From: an uncultured Bacillota bacterium | GTDB taxonomy: Bacteria > Bacillota > Clostridia > Christensenellales > UBA1242 | Direction: 5' to 3' | Length of the DNA stretch: 64,000 nucleotides | NCBI GenBank assembly: GCA_947053645.1 | Contig: CAMRTM010000001.1 | Location: 9,430 to 73,429, forward strand | Shown: piece by piece, positions 11,513-58,332 of the stretch | Layout of the letters: the number at the start of each line of letters is the position of its first letter | How positions within the stretch are numbered: position 1 is the stretch's first letter | Translations under genes and position numbers: made by a program | Notes under the pieces: model-generated | What the model was told of the DNA's origin: nothing | The model's input: only the letters and a program-made list of their open reading frames with translations | Database searches by the model: none

Positions 11513-11804
11513 ATATCCTCCTAATTATATTTAAACTATATCATATTTATGTTATATTGTCCAGGCGAAAATTTTGCTAAAAACAAAAAAGAAGTTTACT
11601 TCAATCTCTAAACCTCTTTTTCGCTAAATGTGAAGCATATCTCCTTCACACTATTATAATGTGCAGGGAGGGGAATATTATACAAAGATTTTTAAATTTT
11701 TTTATAAATCATTCCTCCTTATTTTCTTCCTAACGCAGCTTGCATTTTGAATCGCCTTTGCAGGACTTGTCCGAAACAGCGAGAAAAATGCAAGCAAGTG
11801 CCTT

Positions 11805-12842
11805 TTATTCCTCTCTTAACTTTACTTTGTCTGCAACGCTTTTTCTCATATCTTCATTTATTGCTGCGTAGTGTTTCTTTGTTGTATTCACATCTTTGTG
11901 ACCGAGTACATCGGCGACGATATAAATATCTTTAGTTTCTCTGTATAAATTTGTGCCATATGTGCTTCGTAGTTTGTGTGGAGAAATCTTTTTAAGCGGA
12001 GAGGCAATGCGTGCAAATTTCTTGACTAAATTTTCCACCGCGCGTACTGAAATTCTTTTATTTTGTAGAGATATAAACATTGCCTTTTCGTCTTTATCAA
12101 GTTCAAGGGTTGCGCGCTTTTCCAGCCATGTTTTAAGTGCCATTGCTACTTCGTGTGAAAAATATAACATGGATTGATTTCCACCTTTTCTTGTTACTAC
12201 AAATGCGTTTTGATTGAAGTCAAAACTTTCTACATTAAGCCCAACAAGTTCGCTGATACGAATACCTGTGCCAAGGAATAGGGTAATTATGGCATTGTCG
12301 CGTTCAAAGGTGTTTTTGTTGTAAGAAATTTGTTTTTGTGTAAACTCTGTGGGATTTTCAACCGCATTCATAAGTGCGGAAACTTCGTTCTGTTCAAGCC
12401 TTATAATCTCTTTGTTGTGTAGTTTAGGTGTTTCAATCTTGCTAGCAATGTTTGAAGATAATAAATCATGGTTAAAAAGATATTTAAATAGACTTCTTAG
12501 AGAGGCGAGTTTTCTTGCCTTGCCTTTTTCACTGTTTCTATAGGTTTTGCCGTCCTTTTCATAAATTGCTATATAAGACAAAAACTGCTCAATATGGCGA
12601 GATTTTAGTGTGTCTAAGTCCTGAGTGGTGATCTTTTCAGGTGGCTTTTTAAAAACAAATTCGCTTAAATAATCAAAAAATACAGCAAAGTCCATGGCGT
12701 AGTTGTATCTTGTGAGTGAACTTGTATTATTTTCCACGCCTACGAAAAAGTCATAACAAAACTCTGGAAGATTATCAAGGTATTTTCCAGTCTTAATTCT
12801 GTTTTGCATATCGCGTCTTTCATAGAAAGAAGGTTTTTCCAT
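11805..12842 (-). CDS. Tyrosine recombinase/integrase (XerC/XerD-like family)
   Basis: 345 aa. Catalytic signature GTGIRISEL (R), HKLRSTYGT (HxxR), LGHKDVNTTKKHY (H...Y). N-terminal SAM-like core-binding domain. Confidence 0.85.
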   Translation of the reverse strand: MEKPSFYERRDMQNRIKTGKYLDNLPEFCYDFFVGVENNTSSLTRYNYAMDFAVFFDYLSEFVFKKPPEKITTQDLDTLKSRHIEQFLSYIAIYEKDGKTYRNSEKGKARKLASLRSLFKYLFNHDLLSSNIASKIETPKLHNKEIIRLEQNEVSALMNAVENPTEFTQKQISYNKNTFERDNAIITLFLGTGIRISELVGLNVESFDFNQNAFVVTRKGGNQSMLYFSHEVAMALKTWLEKRATLELDKDEKAMFISLQNKRISVRAVENLVKKFARIASPLKKISPHKLRSTYGTNLYRETKDIYIVADVLGHKDVNTTKKHYAAINEDMRKSVADKVKLREE

Positions 12843-13013
12843 ATTTATATTATATCTTTTTTTTATTTTAAAGTAAAGTAAATTAGACTACTATATATTG
12901 TGGCTATTATGCACATACTAGCCACAATAACGCCAATATTTAGATAGTTTTGCTATAAAAATAGTTGCTTTTATTATATTTAATATTTATAATTACAAAT
13001 ATAAGGAGCAAAA

Positions 13014-15544: not shown

Positions 15545-16165
15545 CTACCCTATTTGTAGAACGAAAGAGTAGATATCAAGTTGCTTTTTAAGGGCTTTAT
15601 AGTCTGGACAGTGCGATTTTACTTCTTCCCAAAAGGCTTTGGAGTGATTTAGGTGGACGCCGTGACAAAGTTCATGGATTACTACATATTCTATTAGTTC
15701 TTTTGGCAGGATTACAAGTCGCCAATTTAATTTCATGTTGCCCTTTCTATCGTAACTACCCCACACATGACGGGAATTAGAAAGTTTAAAACTTTTATAT
15801 ATGAGTTGCGTTTTTGCGGAAATCTCTTTGGCAATGGTAGGCAAGTGTTTTTCTGCCTCTTTATGATAGAAATCTAAGAGTTTTCCATTTTTATTACCAT
15901 GCATTAGAAGGCTGAGGTCAATATCTTCAAATCTATATTTCTGCCCAAGCAGATAGATATAAGATTGAAAAGCAAACTCGTTACGGAAAGCATTGATTTT
16001 GTTCACCCGTTTTTGTTGCTTTTCAATCCAGTGTAACTTGGAGGTTATAAACTCCTCAATAACCGCATTAGAGGCCTTTAAAGGTGCTTTTACTATTATC
16101 TCCCCTTTGCCATTTACACGCATGGAGATTGTTTTTCGTTTTTCTCTTATAAGATTATATTCCAT
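15545..16165 (-). CDS. M48-like/DUF45 (YgjP-type) zinc metallopeptidase
   Basis: HELCHGVHLNHSKAFW motif typical of DUF45. I prefer the ATG at 16165 (MEYNLIREKRKTISMRV...) over the TTG at 16204 in the ORF track, because that TTG lies inside the upstream terminator. Confidence 0.75.
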   Translation of the reverse strand: MEYNLIREKRKTISMRVNGKGEIIVKAPLKASNAVIEEFITSKLHWIEKQQKRVNKINAFRNEFAFQSYIYLLGQKYRFEDIDLSLLMHGNKNGKLLDFYHKEAEKHLPTIAKEISAKTQLIYKSFKLSNSRHVWGSYDRKGNMKLNWRLVILPKELIEYVVIHELCHGVHLNHSKAFWEEVKSHCPDYKALKKQLDIYSFVLQIG

Positions 16166-16200
16166 ACTTATATTATAGCACGATTTATAAAAATACTGAA
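16166..16200 (-). promoter_or_regulatory. Extended -10 promoter TGcTATAAT (16172-16180) placed 6 nt before the ATG (leaderless geometry)
   Basis: The minus strand reads TTCAGT-17 nt-TATAAT-ataagt-ATG. There is no SD between the -10 and the start codon. Confidence 0.5.
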
Positions 16201-16228
16201 ACAAAAAAGTGGCAAAGCCACTAATTTG

Positions 16229-16894
16229 TTAACCTTCGTATTCCCCTTGATTTTCAAGTATTTTAATTCGTTTATCAAGCATCTCTATCATACCCTTTAT
16301 TCCTAGTTTGCTAGAACCGAGATATTTTTTATTGATGTAACCCTCTCTATTAAAGTAAGGTGCATTTGGGCATACATGTATAAAATCCCCATAAACCTTA
16401 TCAGCATTGTCTAAAACGTTTTTGCGAGCATTGTCATCCACAAAGTAAAGTGTTTTAACTTCATACTGGTGTTTTATTTTGTTGAGGTCATCAAGAATCT
16501 TTGTATTAGTAGGTCGATTTTCTTTAATCTTATTAAAAGAGTTTCCCCAATTATTCCAGCCAGTAAATTTACCTAATTTCCATGTTTGGTCTTCTGTCAT
16601 TATAAGGCTGCAGTCCTCAATGGAGAATTTCTCTTTATTATTTTCCCAAAATGTTATAGTAGACATCCAAGCAGAAGCGGGATAGATTTCATTGCTATCC
16701 ATGTTAGTATGGCTGCCATCCAAATAGAAGTGAATAATGTTTGTTACCTCGCCTTCAAGTTTTCCTATTTTGGCGATTTTTTCAAACATGGAATAGACAA
16801 TGGCGGTGTCATCTTCATCAATGCTCATGCATGAGCCAAAGTCGAATACTGTTTGAAGTTCTATCATCCATACATTTACTTGTTTCTTCCTCAT
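16229..16894 (-). CDS. Hypothetical protein (221 aa)
   Basis: The ATG at 16894 lies 8 nt downstream of AAAGGAGG. The GTG at 16903 in the ORF track overlaps the SD. No family recognised. Terminator agtggc-aaa-gccact at 16203-16222. Confidence 0.55.
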   Translation of the reverse strand: MRKKQVNVWMIELQTVFDFGSCMSIDEDDTAIVYSMFEKIAKIGKLEGEVTNIIHFYLDGSHTNMDSNEIYPASAWMSTITFWENNKEKFSIEDCSLIMTEDQTWKLGKFTGWNNWGNSFNKIKENRPTNTKILDDLNKIKHQYEVKTLYFVDDNARKNVLDNADKVYGDFIHVCPNAPYFNREGYINKKYLGSSKLGIKGMIEMLDKRIKILENQGEYEG

Positions 16895-17090
16895 ATAGCA
16901 CACCTCCTTTATGTTTTCAGTATATCATAGATATTTTGTTTGTCAAGGGTGAAATGTTTTTATGCCGCTATTATGCAATGCATATTAGCACAAGATATGG
17001 CAAAATTTTTGCATAATAGTGCCAATTTGTTTGACGAAGTCACTATTTTTATATATAATTTATTTATAAATATATATTAACGAGGGAAAT

Positions 17091-18788
17091 ATGGATATTT
17101 ACGCAAAAGGTCAACTTTCTTTCTTGATTTTAAACTGTCTTTTAGAGAGAGATTTTTATGGGCTTGATATTATCACTGAAATAAGAGAGCGTACGAATGG
17201 AAAAATAGACTTAAAGAAGCCTAGCGTTTATTCAAACCTTACAAGAATGGAAAAGCAAGGGCTTGTTTCTTCATATCTGCAATCAAGCGATCTTGGCCCA
17301 AACAGACGCTATTACTCTATTACTGAAAGAGGAAGAAAAACGCACCAAGAGTTGAAAGAAGAGTTTGAACGCAACCATTTTGATGTATTTAGAGATTTTG
17401 GTGAGGCTGAAGATGAGCCGATAGCACAACCTATCCTATCGCAAGAGCAACCAGCCTCAGTCCTTTCTCCTATGCAAGAAGATATGGAGGAAGATGAAGA
17501 AGAAATGGATGGCTTCTTTGATTTTTCTTCGCTTGATTCCCCTAAGCCAAGTGAGCCTAAACAATCAGTTTTTGTACAAGAAGAAGTTAAAGAAGACCCT
17601 GTGATAGTAGATTCTGTAATTGAAGAAGCACTTTTAGTAACCGAGCCTGTGAAAGAGCCAGAGCCAGTCCAAGAGGTTATTTCTACACCAGCAACAGAGG
17701 AGGAGTCAGTGCCATATATTTCCCCTCTTAAAGCACAAGCACAGGAAACAAAACAAACAAGTTTTGATGACCCAGATTACAATAAACGCATTTATGATAT
17801 AACTAAAGATTTTAACAAGTATCGTAGAAAGAGAAGTTTTGCGGAAGATCAATTGGCTTTTGATGTAAAGGATACCGATTTTTCTCTTCAAGACTCAGAG
17901 GCTAAGAGACAAGAAAAAATAGAAGTTTTCAAGTCTGCCCTTCTTGAAAGTAAGGGGCGTTTTGGTGAGAGAATGGCAGAGGAAGAATTTAAAAAACCAG
18001 CCACTCCAGCATATACAAGGCCTATGCCAGTGCCTACTCCTATGGCACAAGAGGAAAAGGAAGAAGAAAAGCAAGATGATGGTGTGTTTATAACAAATCG
18101 AGTTGAACGCGAAAATGTTATGCGTACCCGCAAGATTGAACCTCCTAGGCTTAAGATAGTAAATGAAAATCCACCTCTCCCAGCACCTAAGCGTGATGCA
18201 AGTATAGATCCTTCTCACAAGGAAATCATTTCACAATTATATTCAAAGAGCAAAGGTTCAGATACCGTGCAAGAGGAATTAGATATTGGCTTATACGATT
18301 ATGACGATCTTTCAGATTACTATAATGCAAGCAATATTTCATTTAAAACATATGAGCAGAATAAAGCGAAAACAAAGCATAATACAAACAAACTTAACAT
18401 GATTGCCTCTGCTATCACATTTACTCTACTATGTATTTTCTCTAGCGTGTTATTTGCTGTACTCTACACACAAGGTTTGACTAATCCTAATACAAGTTTT
18501 CTTTACATAATTATTCCAGGTGCGTATTTCATTGATGTTTGTGCAAAACTATCCGCACTTAAAAATACAAGTTGGGAGCCTAAGCCTATGCTGCCTCAAT
18601 GGTTTATGTGGCTTATGACATTACTAACTTGCGGAGTTGTTGTCGGACTTAATTTCTTATTTGGAATGAATATTGAATCCTTATCTTTATATTACACTAC
18701 CCTCATTCTTCCAATTGTTTCAATTATAGCTGTGCTTCCATTTAGATATTATGTAAAGCGTAATCTTTTTATAAGAAAGTGGAAATAG
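17091..18788 (+). CDS. PadR-family winged-helix domain fused to an acidic/proline-rich linker and a C-terminal multi-pass membrane domain
   Basis: 565 aa. The N-terminus (LILNCLLERDFYGLDIITEI...SVYSNLTRMEKQGLVSS) is PadR-like. About 330 aa are low-complexity and E/P/K-rich. The C-terminus has about 4 predicted TM helices. Confidence 0.7.
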   Translation: MDIYAKGQLSFLILNCLLERDFYGLDIITEIRERTNGKIDLKKPSVYSNLTRMEKQGLVSSYLQSSDLGPNRRYYSITERGRKTHQELKEEFERNHFDVFRDFGEAEDEPIAQPILSQEQPASVLSPMQEDMEEDEEEMDGFFDFSSLDSPKPSEPKQSVFVQEEVKEDPVIVDSVIEEALLVTEPVKEPEPVQEVISTPATEEESVPYISPLKAQAQETKQTSFDDPDYNKRIYDITKDFNKYRRKRSFAEDQLAFDVKDTDFSLQDSEAKRQEKIEVFKSALLESKGRFGERMAEEEFKKPATPAYTRPMPVPTPMAQEEKEEEKQDDGVFITNRVERENVMRTRKIEPPRLKIVNENPPLPAPKRDASIDPSHKEIISQLYSKSKGSDTVQEELDIGLYDYDDLSDYYNASNISFKTYEQNKAKTKHNTNKLNMIASAITFTLLCIFSSVLFAVLYTQGLTNPNTSFLYIIIPGAYFIDVCAKLSALKNTSWEPKPMLPQWFMWLMTLLTCGVVVGLNFLFGMNIESLSLYYTTLILPIVSIIAVLPFRYYVKRNLFIRKWK

Positions 18789-18816
18789 AAAAAAGCAAGT
18801 TATACTTGCTTTTTTC
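18789..18816. terminator. Bidirectional terminator at the convergence point of + and - strand gene blocks
   Basis: A6-agcaagt-tat-acttgct-T6. The stop codon of the minus-strand gene (18800-18802) lies partly in the loop. Confidence 0.8.
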
Positions 18817-19420
18817 TATTTATTAATTTTCTATTAATTGCTTTTATAAGACTTATTGATAAATCTATAGTAAGGAATACAACGACTATTGCTATTGAAA
18901 ATATAAGTATATACCCGATTGAATTTGAAAGCACAGTACATAGTAGTGTCACAATACTACAAGAGATAAAACCACCTATCGCAATCGAAAGAAGTGACCA
19001 GTGTAACTTTAGATTAGAAAGTCCAGCTATAAAACTGCCCGCCCAGATACCAGTCAAAGGAAGAGGCAAAGCGACAAATGTAGTAAGAAAAAGGTATTTT
19101 TTAAAGGTGCTTTCCTGTTTTTCAAGTAATGTAGATTTGACGCTATACCTACTTTTAAGAACGCCAGTTAAAAAGCCAGTGGTATGGCGTTTTATTTTTC
19201 TTGCGAGAAACATAATCAATATACTTGGAAGAATGCTGCCAACAAATCCAAAAAGTAGTGCTTGCCACGGTGGAAGAGCAGTCCCACCCCATAAACTTGT
19301 ATTCATAGCAAAAGGTATTGCGATTTTACTTTCAAGCGTGGGAATCATTGCAAGTAAGATTACAGCAAGCCAAATACAGGACGAAAAATTTTCAGCAAAG
19401 ATTTTAATTACATTATCCAT
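18800..19420 (-). CDS. Membrane protein, small multidrug export-like family (COG2426-like)
   Basis: 206 aa. ESKIAIPFA and LPLPLTGIWAGSFIAGL resemble the conserved motifs of that family (E-x-x-x-AIP, PLP-x-TG-x-W-x-G). Confidence 0.45.
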   Translation of the reverse strand: MDNVIKIFAENFSSCIWLAVILLAMIPTLESKIAIPFAMNTSLWGGTALPPWQALLFGFVGSILPSILIMFLARKIKRHTTGFLTGVLKSRYSVKSTLLEKQESTFKKYLFLTTFVALPLPLTGIWAGSFIAGLSNLKLHWSLLSIAIGGFISCSIVTLLCTVLSNSIGYILIFSIAIVVVFLTIDLSISLIKAINRKLINRKKQV

Positions 19421-19496
19421 ATTACTATATTATTCTTACGAATTAGCGAATATGAAAAAAAAGTGGCTCGGCCACTTTTTTTATAATCAATAATTG

Positions 19497-19715
19497 TCAC
19501 TTCTTCTTCCTAAATAAGAATATTACACACAATGCAAATGGAATGGCACACACCCCTATTATTAGCGGAGTTAAAGGAATAAGTAATCCCCTTAAAGCAA
19601 ATACATCCACCCCACAGGCGTCAAGAATAGGAATATATGCAAAACTAACGCCAATGAGAGATAACGATAAACCCATTAGAACTATCTTCCAAAATAATTT
19701 CATAAGATTCTCCAC
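19497..19715 (-). CDS. Small membrane protein (72 aa)
   Basis: Two hydrophobic helices and a basic C-terminus (RKKK). Followed by terminator agtggc-tcg-gccact at about 19458-19486. Confidence 0.45.
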   Translation of the reverse strand: MENLMKLFWKIVLMGLSLSLIGVSFAYIPILDACGVDVFALRGLLIPLTPLIIGVCAIPFALCVIFLFRKKK

Positions 19716-19741
19716 ATTTATCTAGCGAGTGCATAATGCAC

Positions 19742-21328
19742 TTATTTTGCTATATCGCTGAATCTAGATTCGCGGATTACATTTACCTTGATTTGTCCTG
19801 GGTATTGCATCTCATTTTCAATTCTCTTTGCAATATCTTTTGCAAGGAACATTGCGTCATTATCACTGATTTCTTCAGGTTTAACGATAATACGCACCTC
19901 TCTTCCTGCTTGAATTGCGTAAGATTTGTCAACGCCTTTGAAACTGTTTGAAATCTCTTCAAGTTGTTGTAGGCGTTTGATATAGTTTTCAAAACTTTCT
20001 CTTCTTGCACCAGGTCGTGAACTTGAAATAGCGTCTGCGACTTGTACTATGATTGCTTCTATACTATGGAATGGAACATTACCATGGTGAGCTTCAATAC
20101 AGTGAATAACCTCTGGGCTTTCCTTGTATTTCTTTGCAAGATCTACACCAATAGTAACATGAGTGCCCTCTACCTCGTGATCAAGAGCTTTACCAATATC
20201 GTGGAGGAAGCCACCTCTTTTTGCGATAGTTGCATTTGCACCAATTTCACTTGCTATCATTCCAGCAAGGAGTGCGGTTTCAATACTGTGTTTTAAGCAG
20301 TTTTGACCATAACTTGTCCTATATTTAAGTCTTCCCATAACTTTAACAAGTTCCGGATGAAGATTGTAAATCGCAACTTCATTGCAAGCGTTATCTCCGG
20401 CTTCTTTGATAGTCTTTTCAACTTCCTTAGTTGCCTTATCAACAACCTCTTCTACGCGTGTTGGATGAATTCTGCCATCTACAATAAGTTTTTCAAGAGA
20501 AAGTCTTGCAATTTCTCTTCTGATAGGGTCAAAACTTGAAATAGTGATTGCTTCTGGTGTATCGTCAACTATAAGTTCAACCCCGGTTACACTTTCAATA
20601 GAGCGGATATTCCTTCCCTCTCTACCAATAATTCTACCCTTCATTTCGTCATTTGGAAGTGCTACTGTTGTAACAGTCATTTCGCTTGAAAGGTCGGTGG
20701 CACATTTTTGAATGGCGCCCATAACTATTTCTTTAGCACTATTTTCTGCGTTTTCTCTTGCTTCATCCTCTATTTGTTTAACAAGAATGCCAGCGTCTTT
20801 CTTTGCCTCTTCAGTGATTGATGAAATGAGAACATCCTTGGCCTCTTTCTTGCTCATGCCAGAAATCTTTTCAAGTTTTTCAAGCATTTCTTCTTTGATT
20901 TTGTTGTGTTCTTCAATTTGATTTGCGATTTTTACCCTTTCGTTTTCAAGAGAATTACGCTCTTTATCAATTTGTTCAAGTTTAGTATCAACAGATGTCT
21001 CTTTCTTAGATACATACTCTTCTCTTTGCGATAAACGCTCTTCCATCTTTTGAATTTCATTGCGTCTTTCTTTTGCCTCAATATTGGCATCGTCTTTAAT
21101 CTTTTGTGCTTCTTCTTTTGCTTCTAGAATGCTTTCCTTTTTGATAGTCTTAGCTTCTGCATATGCCTCTTCAATAATCTTAACTGCATTAGATTTGCTT
21201 TTTCCAATTTTCTTTGTTGCAATAAGTTTATATAATAATATGCCCGCACCCACACCTACTATGGCGCAAGCAATTCCTATAACGGCGGCAATAGCAGGAG
21301 CAACACTACATAACATACTTATGCTCAT
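19742..21328 (-). CDS. rny: Ribonuclease Y
   Basis: 528 aa. N-terminal TM, coiled coil, KH domain (GREGRNIRSIESVTGV), HD domain (GFLHDIGK). Confidence 0.96.
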   Translation of the reverse strand: MSISMLCSVAPAIAAVIGIACAIVGVGAGILLYKLIATKKIGKSKSNAVKIIEEAYAEAKTIKKESILEAKEEAQKIKDDANIEAKERRNEIQKMEERLSQREEYVSKKETSVDTKLEQIDKERNSLENERVKIANQIEEHNKIKEEMLEKLEKISGMSKKEAKDVLISSITEEAKKDAGILVKQIEDEARENAENSAKEIVMGAIQKCATDLSSEMTVTTVALPNDEMKGRIIGREGRNIRSIESVTGVELIVDDTPEAITISSFDPIRREIARLSLEKLIVDGRIHPTRVEEVVDKATKEVEKTIKEAGDNACNEVAIYNLHPELVKVMGRLKYRTSYGQNCLKHSIETALLAGMIASEIGANATIAKRGGFLHDIGKALDHEVEGTHVTIGVDLAKKYKESPEVIHCIEAHHGNVPFHSIEAIIVQVADAISSSRPGARRESFENYIKRLQQLEEISNSFKGVDKSYAIQAGREVRIIVKPEEISDNDAMFLAKDIAKRIENEMQYPGQIKVNVIRESRFSDIAK

Positions 21329-21866: not shown

Positions 21867-23066
<1,200 letters not shown>

Positions 23067-28311: not shown

Positions 28312-28498
28312 AGATTTCTCCGCTCCGCTGCCGCTACGGTCGAAATGACATAATGGTAAATGCACTACGGTCGAAATGACATAATGGTAAATGCACTACG
28401 GTCGAAATGACATAATGGTAAATGCACTACGGTTGAAATGACAATAAGGTGTGCGTTTCAGTCGAAATGACAAAGGATTGAAAAGTGTACAAATGACA
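28312..28498 (+). repeat. Repeat locus A: box AGATTTCTCCGCT followed by six copies of the core GGTCGAAATGACA (three perfect, 31-bp period)
   Basis: Box at 28312-28324. Cores at 28338, 28369 and 28400 are perfect. Cores at 28431 (GGTTGAAATGACA), 28460 (AGTCGAAATGACA) and 28487 (GTACAAATGACA) are variants. Unit: CTACGGTCGAAATGACATAATGGTAAATGCA. Confidence 0.95.
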
Positions 28499-32223: not shown

Positions 32224-32326
32224 GGATTTCTCTGCTACGCCCTATCGGGCAATGGTCGAAATGACAGTGCCTTAGGCACTTTTTTATGCTTTGCTAGATT
32301 CTTGTTCCACTCAGAATGACATAGGG
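32224..32326 (+). repeat. Repeat locus B: box variant GGATTTCTCTGCT, one core, a terminator-like tail, and a degenerate second unit
   Basis: Core GGTCGAAATGACA at 32254-32266. Tail AGTGCC-TTA-GGCACT plus T5 at 32266-32285. Degenerate unit AGATTCTTGTTCCACTCAGAATGACATAGGG at 32297-32326. Confidence 0.9.
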
Positions 32327-39278: not shown

Positions 39279-39327
39279 TGTCGATTTGTCGCTTCAATTA
39301 AAAAATGTTTGAACTAAAAATGCATAA

Positions 39328-43096: not shown

Positions 43097-43229
43097 AGAT
43101 TTCTCCGCTCCACTGCGTTCCGGTCGAAATGACAAAATGAGAGAAAATGGTCTTCAATCAAAATTACAAGGTTTAGTAAGATTTCTCCGCTACGGTCGAA
43201 ATGACAGGAAGGGTTCGGTCGAAATGACA
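43097..43229 (+). repeat. Repeat locus C: two box-plus-core units and one extra core between infB and rbfA
   Basis: Boxes AGATTTCTCCGCT at 43097-43109 and 43179-43191. Perfect cores at 43122-43134, 43194-43206 and 43217-43229. Confidence 0.95.
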
Positions 43230-57873: not shown

Positions 57874-57892
57874 AGTGCCTCAGGCACTTTTT
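57874..57892 (+). repeat. Solo copy of the tail hairpin module AGTGCC-TCA-GGCACT-TTTT
   Basis: Same stem as 32266-32285. Terminator polarity is on the + strand although the flanking genes are on the - strand. Confidence 0.75.
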
Positions 57893-58045
57893 AGACATTA
57901 ATGAATTTTGTTTGAATATCAATGTCCGTCTTAGGCAACAACTTTAAAATCTTCTATGAGTGCAAATTGTCCAATGACAAGTGTAACTATATCATATCAT
58001 GATTAAAAAAGCAAGTAATTTGTCAATAAGTTTTTTATTTTTAAT

Positions 58046-58263
58046 AGATTTCTCCGCTCCGCCTACGGCTTCGGTCGAAATGACATAGGGAAATGGGCTT
58101 CGGTCGAAATGACATAGGGAAATGGGCTTCGGTCGAAATGACAGTGACTGAGGCACTTTTAATGAAATACAGATTGTTAGAAAGTGCGGCGGATCGCCTA
58201 GATCCCTCCGCTACAGTCGGGATGACATAAAGGGATTGGTCGGGATGACTGTGCCTAAGTCAC
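58046..58263 (+). repeat. Repeat locus D: box plus three perfect cores (29-bp period), an imperfect tail, then a diverged ATCCC/GGGAT variant unit with two variant cores and a tail
   Basis: Box at 58046-58058. Cores at 58073, 58102 and 58131. Tail AGTGACTGAGGCACTTTT at 58143-58160. Variant AGATCCCTCCGCTACAGTCGGGATGACA at 58200-58227. GGTCGGGATGACT at 58238-58250. Tail GTGCCTAAGTCAC at 58251-58263. Confidence 0.95.
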
Positions 58264-58332
58264 TCTTATGTAATAGAGATGATTATCAGTGCGGTGATTA
58301 AGTTACAAAAAAAGAGAGGTTCTCCCCCTCTT

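Follow-up and report, generated by a model that had tools for sequence, protein, structure and literature searches.

Short units made of a box and a core recur along the 64-kb stretch of DNA analysed here (the window), and one of them, at positions 58200–58227, departs from the canonical sequence in both of its arms. Does this copy indicate that box and core pair with each other and, if they do, what reads the resulting structure, and as which nucleic acid?

A compensated unit within four repeat blocks

Read on the + strand, the unit under study is AG-ATCCC-TCCGCTACAGTC-GGGAT-GACA, and the canonical unit at 43179–43206, which is of the same length, is AG-ATTTC-TCCGCTACGGTC-GAAAT-GACA. The two differ at five positions, four of which make up two compensated pairs. 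The initial annotation had described two T-to-C changes in the 5′ arm, each compensated by an A-to-G change of its partner in the 3′ arm, in units of equal length and with the arms at 58202–58206 and 58219–58223; both unit sequences bear this out, coordinates included. Also correct is its remark that the next core carries GGGAT, as 58238–58249 reads GGTCGGGATGAC. The fifth difference, a G-to-A change at 58215, is private to this unit and weakens the inner CCG/CGG stem. By our own arithmetic, if one arm has two changes and three further random substitutions fall on the remaining 26 positions, the complementary base would arise at both partner positions with a probability of ∼0.001. On the − strand the unit reads TGTC-ATCCC-GACTGTAGCGGA-GGGAT-CT and thus consists of a TGTC tag, a 5-bp outer stem opening with AT, and a C after the stem. 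For comparison, the gene-strand reading of a unit is TGTC-ATTTC-GA-CCG-TAG-CGG-A-GAAAT-CT.

The window holds four repeat blocks (28312–28472, 32224–32321, 43097–43229 and 58046–58264), situated in spacers between − strand genes: at rplT/SpoU methylase, at xseA, at infB/rbfA and upstream of rpsB. A block contains one full unit or two, behind which the 3′ half is usually repeated one to four more times. Every copy in the window has the same orientation, and the copies are arranged head-to-tail with no inverted partner. A generic pattern, AG-arm(5)-loop(6-45)-complement(arm)-GACA, has seven matches in the window, all of them on the + strand; 20 shuffles, with both strands taken together, gave 0–4 matches each (mean ∼1). 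The core motif occurs 15 times where 3.0 are expected, and the box motif nine times where 1.6 are expected. The generic scan also yielded a third compensated arm type, ATTCT/AGAAT, at 32296–32321. The features of the four blocks are as follows.

58200–58227, − strand: unit under study, arms ATCCC/GGGAT
58238–58250, − strand: extra half-site (tag and 5′ arm on the − strand, AGTCATCCCGACC) with the GGGAT arm of the adjoining unit
58250–58264, no strand: decayed accompanying hairpin module TGTGCCTAAGTCACT, intact as GTGCCTGAGGCAC in a 99%-identical strain (locus L258)
58046–58085, − strand: full unit, arms ATTTC/GAAAT, with a nested loop hairpin
58102–58143, − strand: two more tandem half-sites, GGTCGAAATGACA at 58102 and 58131, period 29
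58143–58157, no strand: accompanying hairpin module AGTGACTGAGGCACT, adjoining the outermost tag
43097–43134, − strand: full unit in the infB-rbfA spacer, with a loop 10 nt longer than that in L258
43179–43206, − strand: canonical minimal unit, arms ATTTC/GAAAT
43217–43229, − strand: extra half-site GGTCGAAATGACA
32224–32266, − strand: full unit with the diverged box GGATTTCTCTGCT and a CCC/GGG loop hairpin, just upstream of the promoter-like site of the next gene
32266–32280, no strand: accompanying hairpin module AGTGCCTTAGGCACT
32296–32321, − strand: third arm type, AG-ATTCT-TGTTCCACTC-AGAAT-GACA
28312–28350, − strand: full unit with ATTTC/GAAAT arms; the SpoU-type methylase start codon is 24 nt away
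28369–28472, − strand: four more half-sites, those at 28369, 28400 and 28431 with a 31-nt period; the one at 28431 reads GGTTGAAATGAC and the one at 28460 reads AGTCGAAATGAC

The accompanying module, AGTGCCTNAGGCACT, is a second small hairpin with four copies in the window (32266–32280, 57874–57888, 58143–58157 and 58250–58264), where 0.18 are expected by chance. Three of the copies adjoin the outermost tag of a repeat block, and the lone copy (57874–57888) lies at the 5′ end of rpsB and is kept in a relative (locus L247). In the same relative ∼130 nt upstream of rpsB are near-identical (window 57888–58020, − strand, aligned with L247 9870–10000), and the sequence farther upstream is unalignable. 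Judged from this alignment, the stretch may be a conserved rpsB leader; it has no Rfam match. A 42-nt repeat that has no relation to the box/core family occurs elsewhere in the window, at 12888–12929 and 23017–23058; its two copies are 81% identical and contain the inverted repeat ATTGTGGCTA...TAGCCACAAT.

Box and core form a maintained stem

The initial annotation had argued that complementarity of the arms is kept beyond sequence alone and had pointed to covariation in a larger set of copies as the means of deciding the matter. We therefore scanned a genome collection, requiring box and core and allowing any pyrimidine/purine at the inner three arm positions. The scan gave at least 119 loci, holding 133 units among the matches listed, from Clostridia, Planctomycetota, Acidobacteriota, Chloroflexota, Bacteroidota, candidate-phyla-radiation groups, Proteobacteria, Cloacimonadota, Omnitrophota and others. 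Among these listed matches the inner triplets are perfectly complementary in 129 of the 133 units, with one mismatch in each of the other four, and the triplets are distributed over TTC/GAA (47), CCC/GGG (43), CTC/GAG (22), TCC/GGA (15) and CCT/AGG (2). It should be noted that the collection scans themselves prescribed the tag and the C (as AGAT), so that the conservation of these bases in the scanned collections is not an independent test.

Two less constrained samples give the same picture. An anchor-only harvest within the genome-scan loci recovered 131 further matches, where ∼18 are expected by chance; 85 of them are fully complementary, and they represent 15 triplet types, including transversions. 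In an independent metagenome sample scanned with completely free triplets, 117 of 129 units are complementary. Over 116 units of the anchor harvest the outer helix is 91% paired, and its covariation of 0.316 (0.162 in shuffles) was reached by none of 500 shuffles and exceeds all slid controls. Mixed units, ATCCC...GAAAT or ATTTC...GGGAT, which the initial annotation had named as evidence against pairing, do not occur once among the units listed from the genome and metagenome collections. Several arm types occur within one short locus in 68 of 229 loci. Box and core thus form a maintained stem, and the claim of pairing is upheld by the genome, metagenome and anchor-only data alike.

The stem comprises 5 bp, an internal loop and 3 bp. 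The shortest units measure 27 nt, their inner stems separated by a 3-nt loop, and the longest, with nested loop hairpins, about 70 nt. The inner CCG/CGG helix in a fixed register is only 40% paired across the wider superfamily and is not kept. The natural covariation suggests that the tag, the AT pairs and the C after the stem have to keep their identity and that the inner three pairs need only pair. In one further locus (L392, 1270–1310 and 1795–1830) an Ssn-like gene of the kind described below lies between variant hairpins, AG-ACCCT-...-AGGGT-GACA; here even the second stem pair, as a rule T-A, has undergone a compensated change.

Folding had also been proposed as a check. The 5-bp outer stem is present in the RNA minimum-free-energy fold of most units, but by its folding energy a single unit is only weakly stable and has no advantage over shuffles, so that covariation carries the case for the stem.

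Turnover of the blocks among close relatives

We compared the blocks of the window with those of relatives, among them a 99%-identical strain (a JGI contig, loci L121 and L258). At the site orthologous to 58200–58227 this strain carries TGTCATCCCGACCGTAGCGGAGGGATCT, with the same ATCCC/GGGAT arms and an intact inner stem. Across phyla, ATCCC/GGGAT is the second commonest subtype of the family. Because of this frequency, the presence of the subtype in the 99%-identical strain and the adjoining GGGAT half-site, a recent double substitution in place is not established, and the sequence comparisons suggest that 58200–58227 is better viewed as a member of a pre-existing subtype than as the product of a recent local double mutation.

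The block in L258 has one 29-nt half-site fewer than that in the window, and the L258 counterpart of unit 43097 has a loop that is 10 nt shorter. Since half-site number and loop length differ between strains that are 99% identical, the blocks are unstable. A relative with a 98%-identical S2 protein is without the entire 255-nt block upstream of rpsB, relatives whose RbfA proteins are 86% and 78% identical are without the infB-rbfA block, and some relatives carry units in the efp–spoIIIAA spacer, which is free of them in the window. The blocks are quickly gained, lost and resized. A higher mutability of the blocks was considered and rejected, as the excess differences are not significant at a background divergence of ∼1%.

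Between efp and spoIIIAA the 99%-identical strain (L121, 13710–14344) has ∼635 extra bases relative to window positions 39284–39325. This insert contains a 162-residue ORF that matches no Pfam family, a repeat of the efp terminator and a complete hairpin unit. All that the window has here is a possible relic, TGAAGCGACAAATC at about 39283–39296.

Tagged hairpin repeats, Ssn-like nucleases and alternative readings

Two published systems resemble the units. CGTC-tagged palindromic repeats carry a (C/T)GTC tag, have AT at stem positions one and two, and end in a tail that stays unpaired; the class includes Neisseria dRS3 and Rickettsia RPE-4/RPE-6, and no tyrosine transposase was found linked to it (Di Nocera et al., BMC Genomics 2013, PMC3733652). 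The second system consists of the NTS/SRM hairpins and Ssn, a single-domain GIY-YIG nuclease of ∼94 residues (CDD cd10448; Chenal et al., Nat Commun 2025, PMC11893778). Ssn binds these hairpins only when they are single-stranded DNA, and only on the strand that carries the tag; neither RNA nor duplex DNA serves as a substrate, and SsnA does not bind RNA. Judged from the described substrate lengths, the cut apparently falls ∼3 nt away from the tag, on its 5′ side. Cutting depends chiefly on the bases that precede the stem, and binding on the C that follows it; the loop can be dispensed with, the two halves act in trans, and ssn genes are typically flanked by their own hairpins (PMC11893778). 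In what follows we take from this work the restriction to single-stranded DNA, the binding and cutting of one strand, the dispensable loop and the action of halves in trans.

The units of the window and NTS/SRM alike have a (C/T)GTC tag on the 5′ side of a hairpin. In both, AT opens the stem, a C directly follows it, the loop can vary, and many copies are dispersed through intergenic DNA. An SRM contains a hairpin-capable inverted repeat of 20–50 nt, which the minimum-free-energy folds and the covariation reveal here as well. It also has an unpaired HGTC 5′ of the stem and a C 3′ of it; most window units read TGTC-AT...AT-CT, and the unit at 32224 ends in CC. The range of unit lengths, 27 to about 70 nt, fits the published dispensability of the loop. 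In contrast to NTS/SRM, the stem is interrupted (5 + 3 bp), the loop base TCCGCT...CGGTC is conserved, the inner three pairs vary freely, half-sites form tandem arrays, and the host belongs to a spore-forming Clostridia lineage. The published SRM search string, HGTCWYN(0-2)YYVSBRHN(0-5)WNVSBRGN(0-2)RNCYNB, matches none of the seven window units and one of 414 harvested units, although this string is operational, was built from 29 genomes and is no biochemical definition.

Likeness to the CGTC repeats (PMC3733652) extends to the tag, for which TGTC is allowed, to AT as first and second stem pairs, to a short unpaired tail, to occurrence in several phyla with no adjoining transposase gene, and to inverted dimers, the usual arrangement of CGTC repeats, which in other genomes involve 42 of the 133 units among the matches listed and which occur nowhere in the window. 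The CGTC repeats have a contiguous stem of 8–9 bp, loops of 4–5 nt and a CCA tail, whereas the stem here is 5 + 3 bp and the tail is CT. Furthermore, Firmicutes are not among the five phyla listed for them, and the head-to-tail arrangement of the window copies is one that was termed negligible (PMC3733652).

Ssn-like ORFs were searched for by motif scan and tblastn over all fetched loci, the metagenome loci among these having been selected by hairpin alone. In seven of 120 metagenome loci an Ssn-like GIY-YIG ORF directly adjoins hairpins with the loop motif of the window, and in two of them (L282 and L315) a hairpin lies on both sides of the gene with the tags outward, a further likeness to NTS/SRM. 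The encoded proteins are single-domain and 86–124 aa long; their likeness to Ssn is judged here from size and from the Pfam GIY-YIG match (E-values of 1e-12 and 2e-17). In a check that started from the protein, two homologues were picked out of more than 7,600 relatives. Each of the two genes lies between tagged hairpins of the same superfamily, whose loops have other sequences. Around one gene the two hairpins can carry different inner triplets (L315 and L333), which suggests that in this subfamily the inner three pairs need only pair. For N. meningitidis SsnA, a swap of the stem sequence that keeps the hairpin abolishes activity (PMC11893778), so that free variation of the arms requires a more tolerant enzyme or several enzymes. 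ORF clustering over the at least 119 genome loci returned no recurrent transposase and only ECF sigma factors and spurious ORFs running through the repeat; the GIY-YIG gene is the only recurrent neighbour found. By tblastn, the 64-kb window and the other loci fetched from close relatives contain no GIY-YIG gene, and the partner enzyme is hence unproven for this organism. Approximate GIY-YIG queries gave no tblastn match, whereas real Ssn-like ORFs used as queries did.

We consider it probable that the box/core units are CGTC/TGTC-tagged hairpin repeats, the class named NTS or Ssn-related motifs in 2025, that are read as single-stranded DNA by an Ssn nuclease. From our side, this reading draws on the covariation, the shared skeleton, the hairpins with the loop motif that adjoin Ssn-like genes elsewhere and the gain, loss and change in copy number among relatives. 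On the − strand a unit would present TGTC, a stem starting with AT, a variable loop, the complementary arm ending in AT, and then C; whenever this strand becomes single-stranded, it would fold into a hairpin. A small single-domain GIY-YIG nuclease would recognise both this fold and the bases at its foot, an unpaired GTC ahead of the stem and a C behind it, and would cut a few bases 5′ of the tag. As the stem must form, only copies with complementary arms would stay recognisable, and arm variants would come as matched pairs. In this Clostridia lineage an Ssn enzyme presumably acts on the copies, and the tandem half-sites may arise by slippage and give the one 3′ arm a choice of partners. Selection may act on recognition by the nuclease or on spread of the repeat, instead of on a host function. 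Since both the class of hairpin repeats and its enzyme family have been described, the finding of a maintained stem is sound but largely explained.

The stem could instead be selected as RNA, the units being cis-acting hairpins (stabiliser, processing site or attenuator, as for classical REPs) in the mRNAs of the flanking genes. We regard this as unlikely, with the copy inside the infB-rbfA operon as a possible case. The TGTC strand is the sense strand of co-directional genes for all units in the window and in the relatives, one block lies within the nusA-infB-rbfA operon, RNA roles have been proposed for REPs (PMC3733652), and the outer stem appears in most RNA folds, as described above. However, gene direction and replication direction coincide in the window and are confounded; its orientation equally puts the cleavable strand on the lagging-strand template. 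A crude orientation count relative to flanking ORFs, taken over the at least 119 loci of many phyla, gave 18 sense, 12 antisense and 20 mixed, with no clear bias. Mismatches of the wobble (G-U) type in the anchor-harvest and metagenome units show no strand asymmetry (10 versus 9) and so lend no support to a single functional strand. Close relatives with intact operons do without whole blocks. Two units, at 32224 and 58046, have a terminator-like site on one side and the next gene's promoter-like site on the other and may therefore be poorly transcribed. Rfam gave no match over the whole window at the gathering score, and a search of the locus at E-values up to 10 returned only chance-level matches, none of them on the units. 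Lastly, SsnA does not bind RNA, and the published biochemistry of the family points, by analogy, to single-stranded DNA rather than RNA (PMC11893778).

Two observations belong beside these. The GC skew of the window changes from positive to negative at about 16000–20000, and after 27 kb the repeat copies and the listed genes are all on one strand; the switch is consistent with a point at which replication forks, or gene directions, meet. A + strand small-RNA gene, suggested by a terminator-like hairpin and T-run after the unit at 32266, was rejected, as the other loci are without a proper T-run or a consistent promoter.

Equally improbable in our view is a non-autonomous element of the REP/REPIN type that is spread by a tyrosine HUH transposase (RAYT/IS200-like) or another enzyme, with GIY-YIG genes as occasional neighbours. 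The GTAG-tagged REPs and REPINs with their RAYT (TnpA-REP) enzymes are also short extragenic hairpins, palindromic with an unpaired tetranucleotide at the stem foot, read as single-stranded DNA and found as inverted doublets, and a gene flanked by its own repeats resembles a REPtron. Among the matches listed, 42 of the 133 genome units have an inverted partner with the tags outward, as opposed to five in the other arrangement. Target-site duplications are absent (for k = 2–9 around 74 dimers, identical flanks are at or near chance), and presence or absence varies among relatives, as would be expected of such an element. However, the tag of that system is GTAG/GTGG and its enzyme an HUH tyrosine enzyme, no RAYT is linked to the CGTC/TGTC class (PMC3733652), and the recurrent gene in our loci is the GIY-YIG gene and no transposase. 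The subterminal hairpins of IS200/IS605 are likewise recognised as single-stranded DNA, produce no target-site duplication and have an orientation tied to the lagging-strand template, but they bound a tnpA/tnpB element, whereas the copies here are solitary, 27–70 nt long and without cargo.

A miniature inverted-repeat element moved by a DDE transposase, with TGTCAT...ATGACA as terminal inverted repeats and 5′-TG...CA-3′ ends, is very improbable. The tags-outward dimers do resemble a short element with inverted termini, but the 74 dimers are free of the 2–9 bp duplications of such an element. Moreover, the halves carry different arm triplets, each internally complementary, in 23 of 42 dimers (genome units among the matches listed), and single units and head-to-tail arrays are common, being the rule in the window. 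Coincidence or local gene conversion, which would make the compensated copy uninformative on pairing, can be dismissed: only one such copy had originally been cited, and conversion between neighbours seems real (the loop of unit 43097 in L258 is identical to that of unit 43179), but the large samples refute it, with hundreds of independent copies in many phyla that remain complementary through at least 15 arm types.

Returning to the nuclease reading, there is a bolder form of it, which we think unlikely. The units would then make up a very widespread and distinct subfamily of Ssn motifs, in which the nuclease reads the inner three pairs by shape alone; in this Clostridia lineage copies would be kept in translation-factor operons, always with the cleavable strand as both lagging-strand template and sense strand, and tandem half-sites that share a 3′ arm would be programmed sites for single-strand nicking or control of recombination. 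If true, reading by shape alone would account for the coexistence of at least 15 arm types, also of different types around one ssn gene. New in any case is a subfamily with the TCCGCT...CGGTC loop base and a short interrupted stem in Clostridia and at least 10 other phyla. As the published motif search misses this subfamily, counts of Ssn-related motifs are underestimates. The map of positions that need identity and positions that need only pair, obtained from natural covariation, is useful for the design of programmable Ssn cutters of single-stranded DNA.

A scan of viral contigs with the 14-base core was swamped by chance matches and exposed one contig with three arm types; the box-core pattern with free arms has matches in only 11 of 2.9 million viral contigs. 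The exposed contig is phage-like (L071, IMGVR_UViG_3300032046_000440), with the three arm types at 11600–11900, and also holds two unrelated tandem arrays, one of an 18-nt GATGCTCATGATTAACGG-like unit and one of a 13-nt A-rich unit.

A literature search with the core sequence and with spurious peptide strings returned primers only, and a second search by sequence string led to the Ssn description. In three loci (L336, 33–400; L153; L209) ORFs continue across the hairpin, and their C-terminal peptides are, for example, DPSASVGMT or IPPLRYAPVGMT; the repeats thus create spurious C-terminal tails and spurious short ORFs in annotations.
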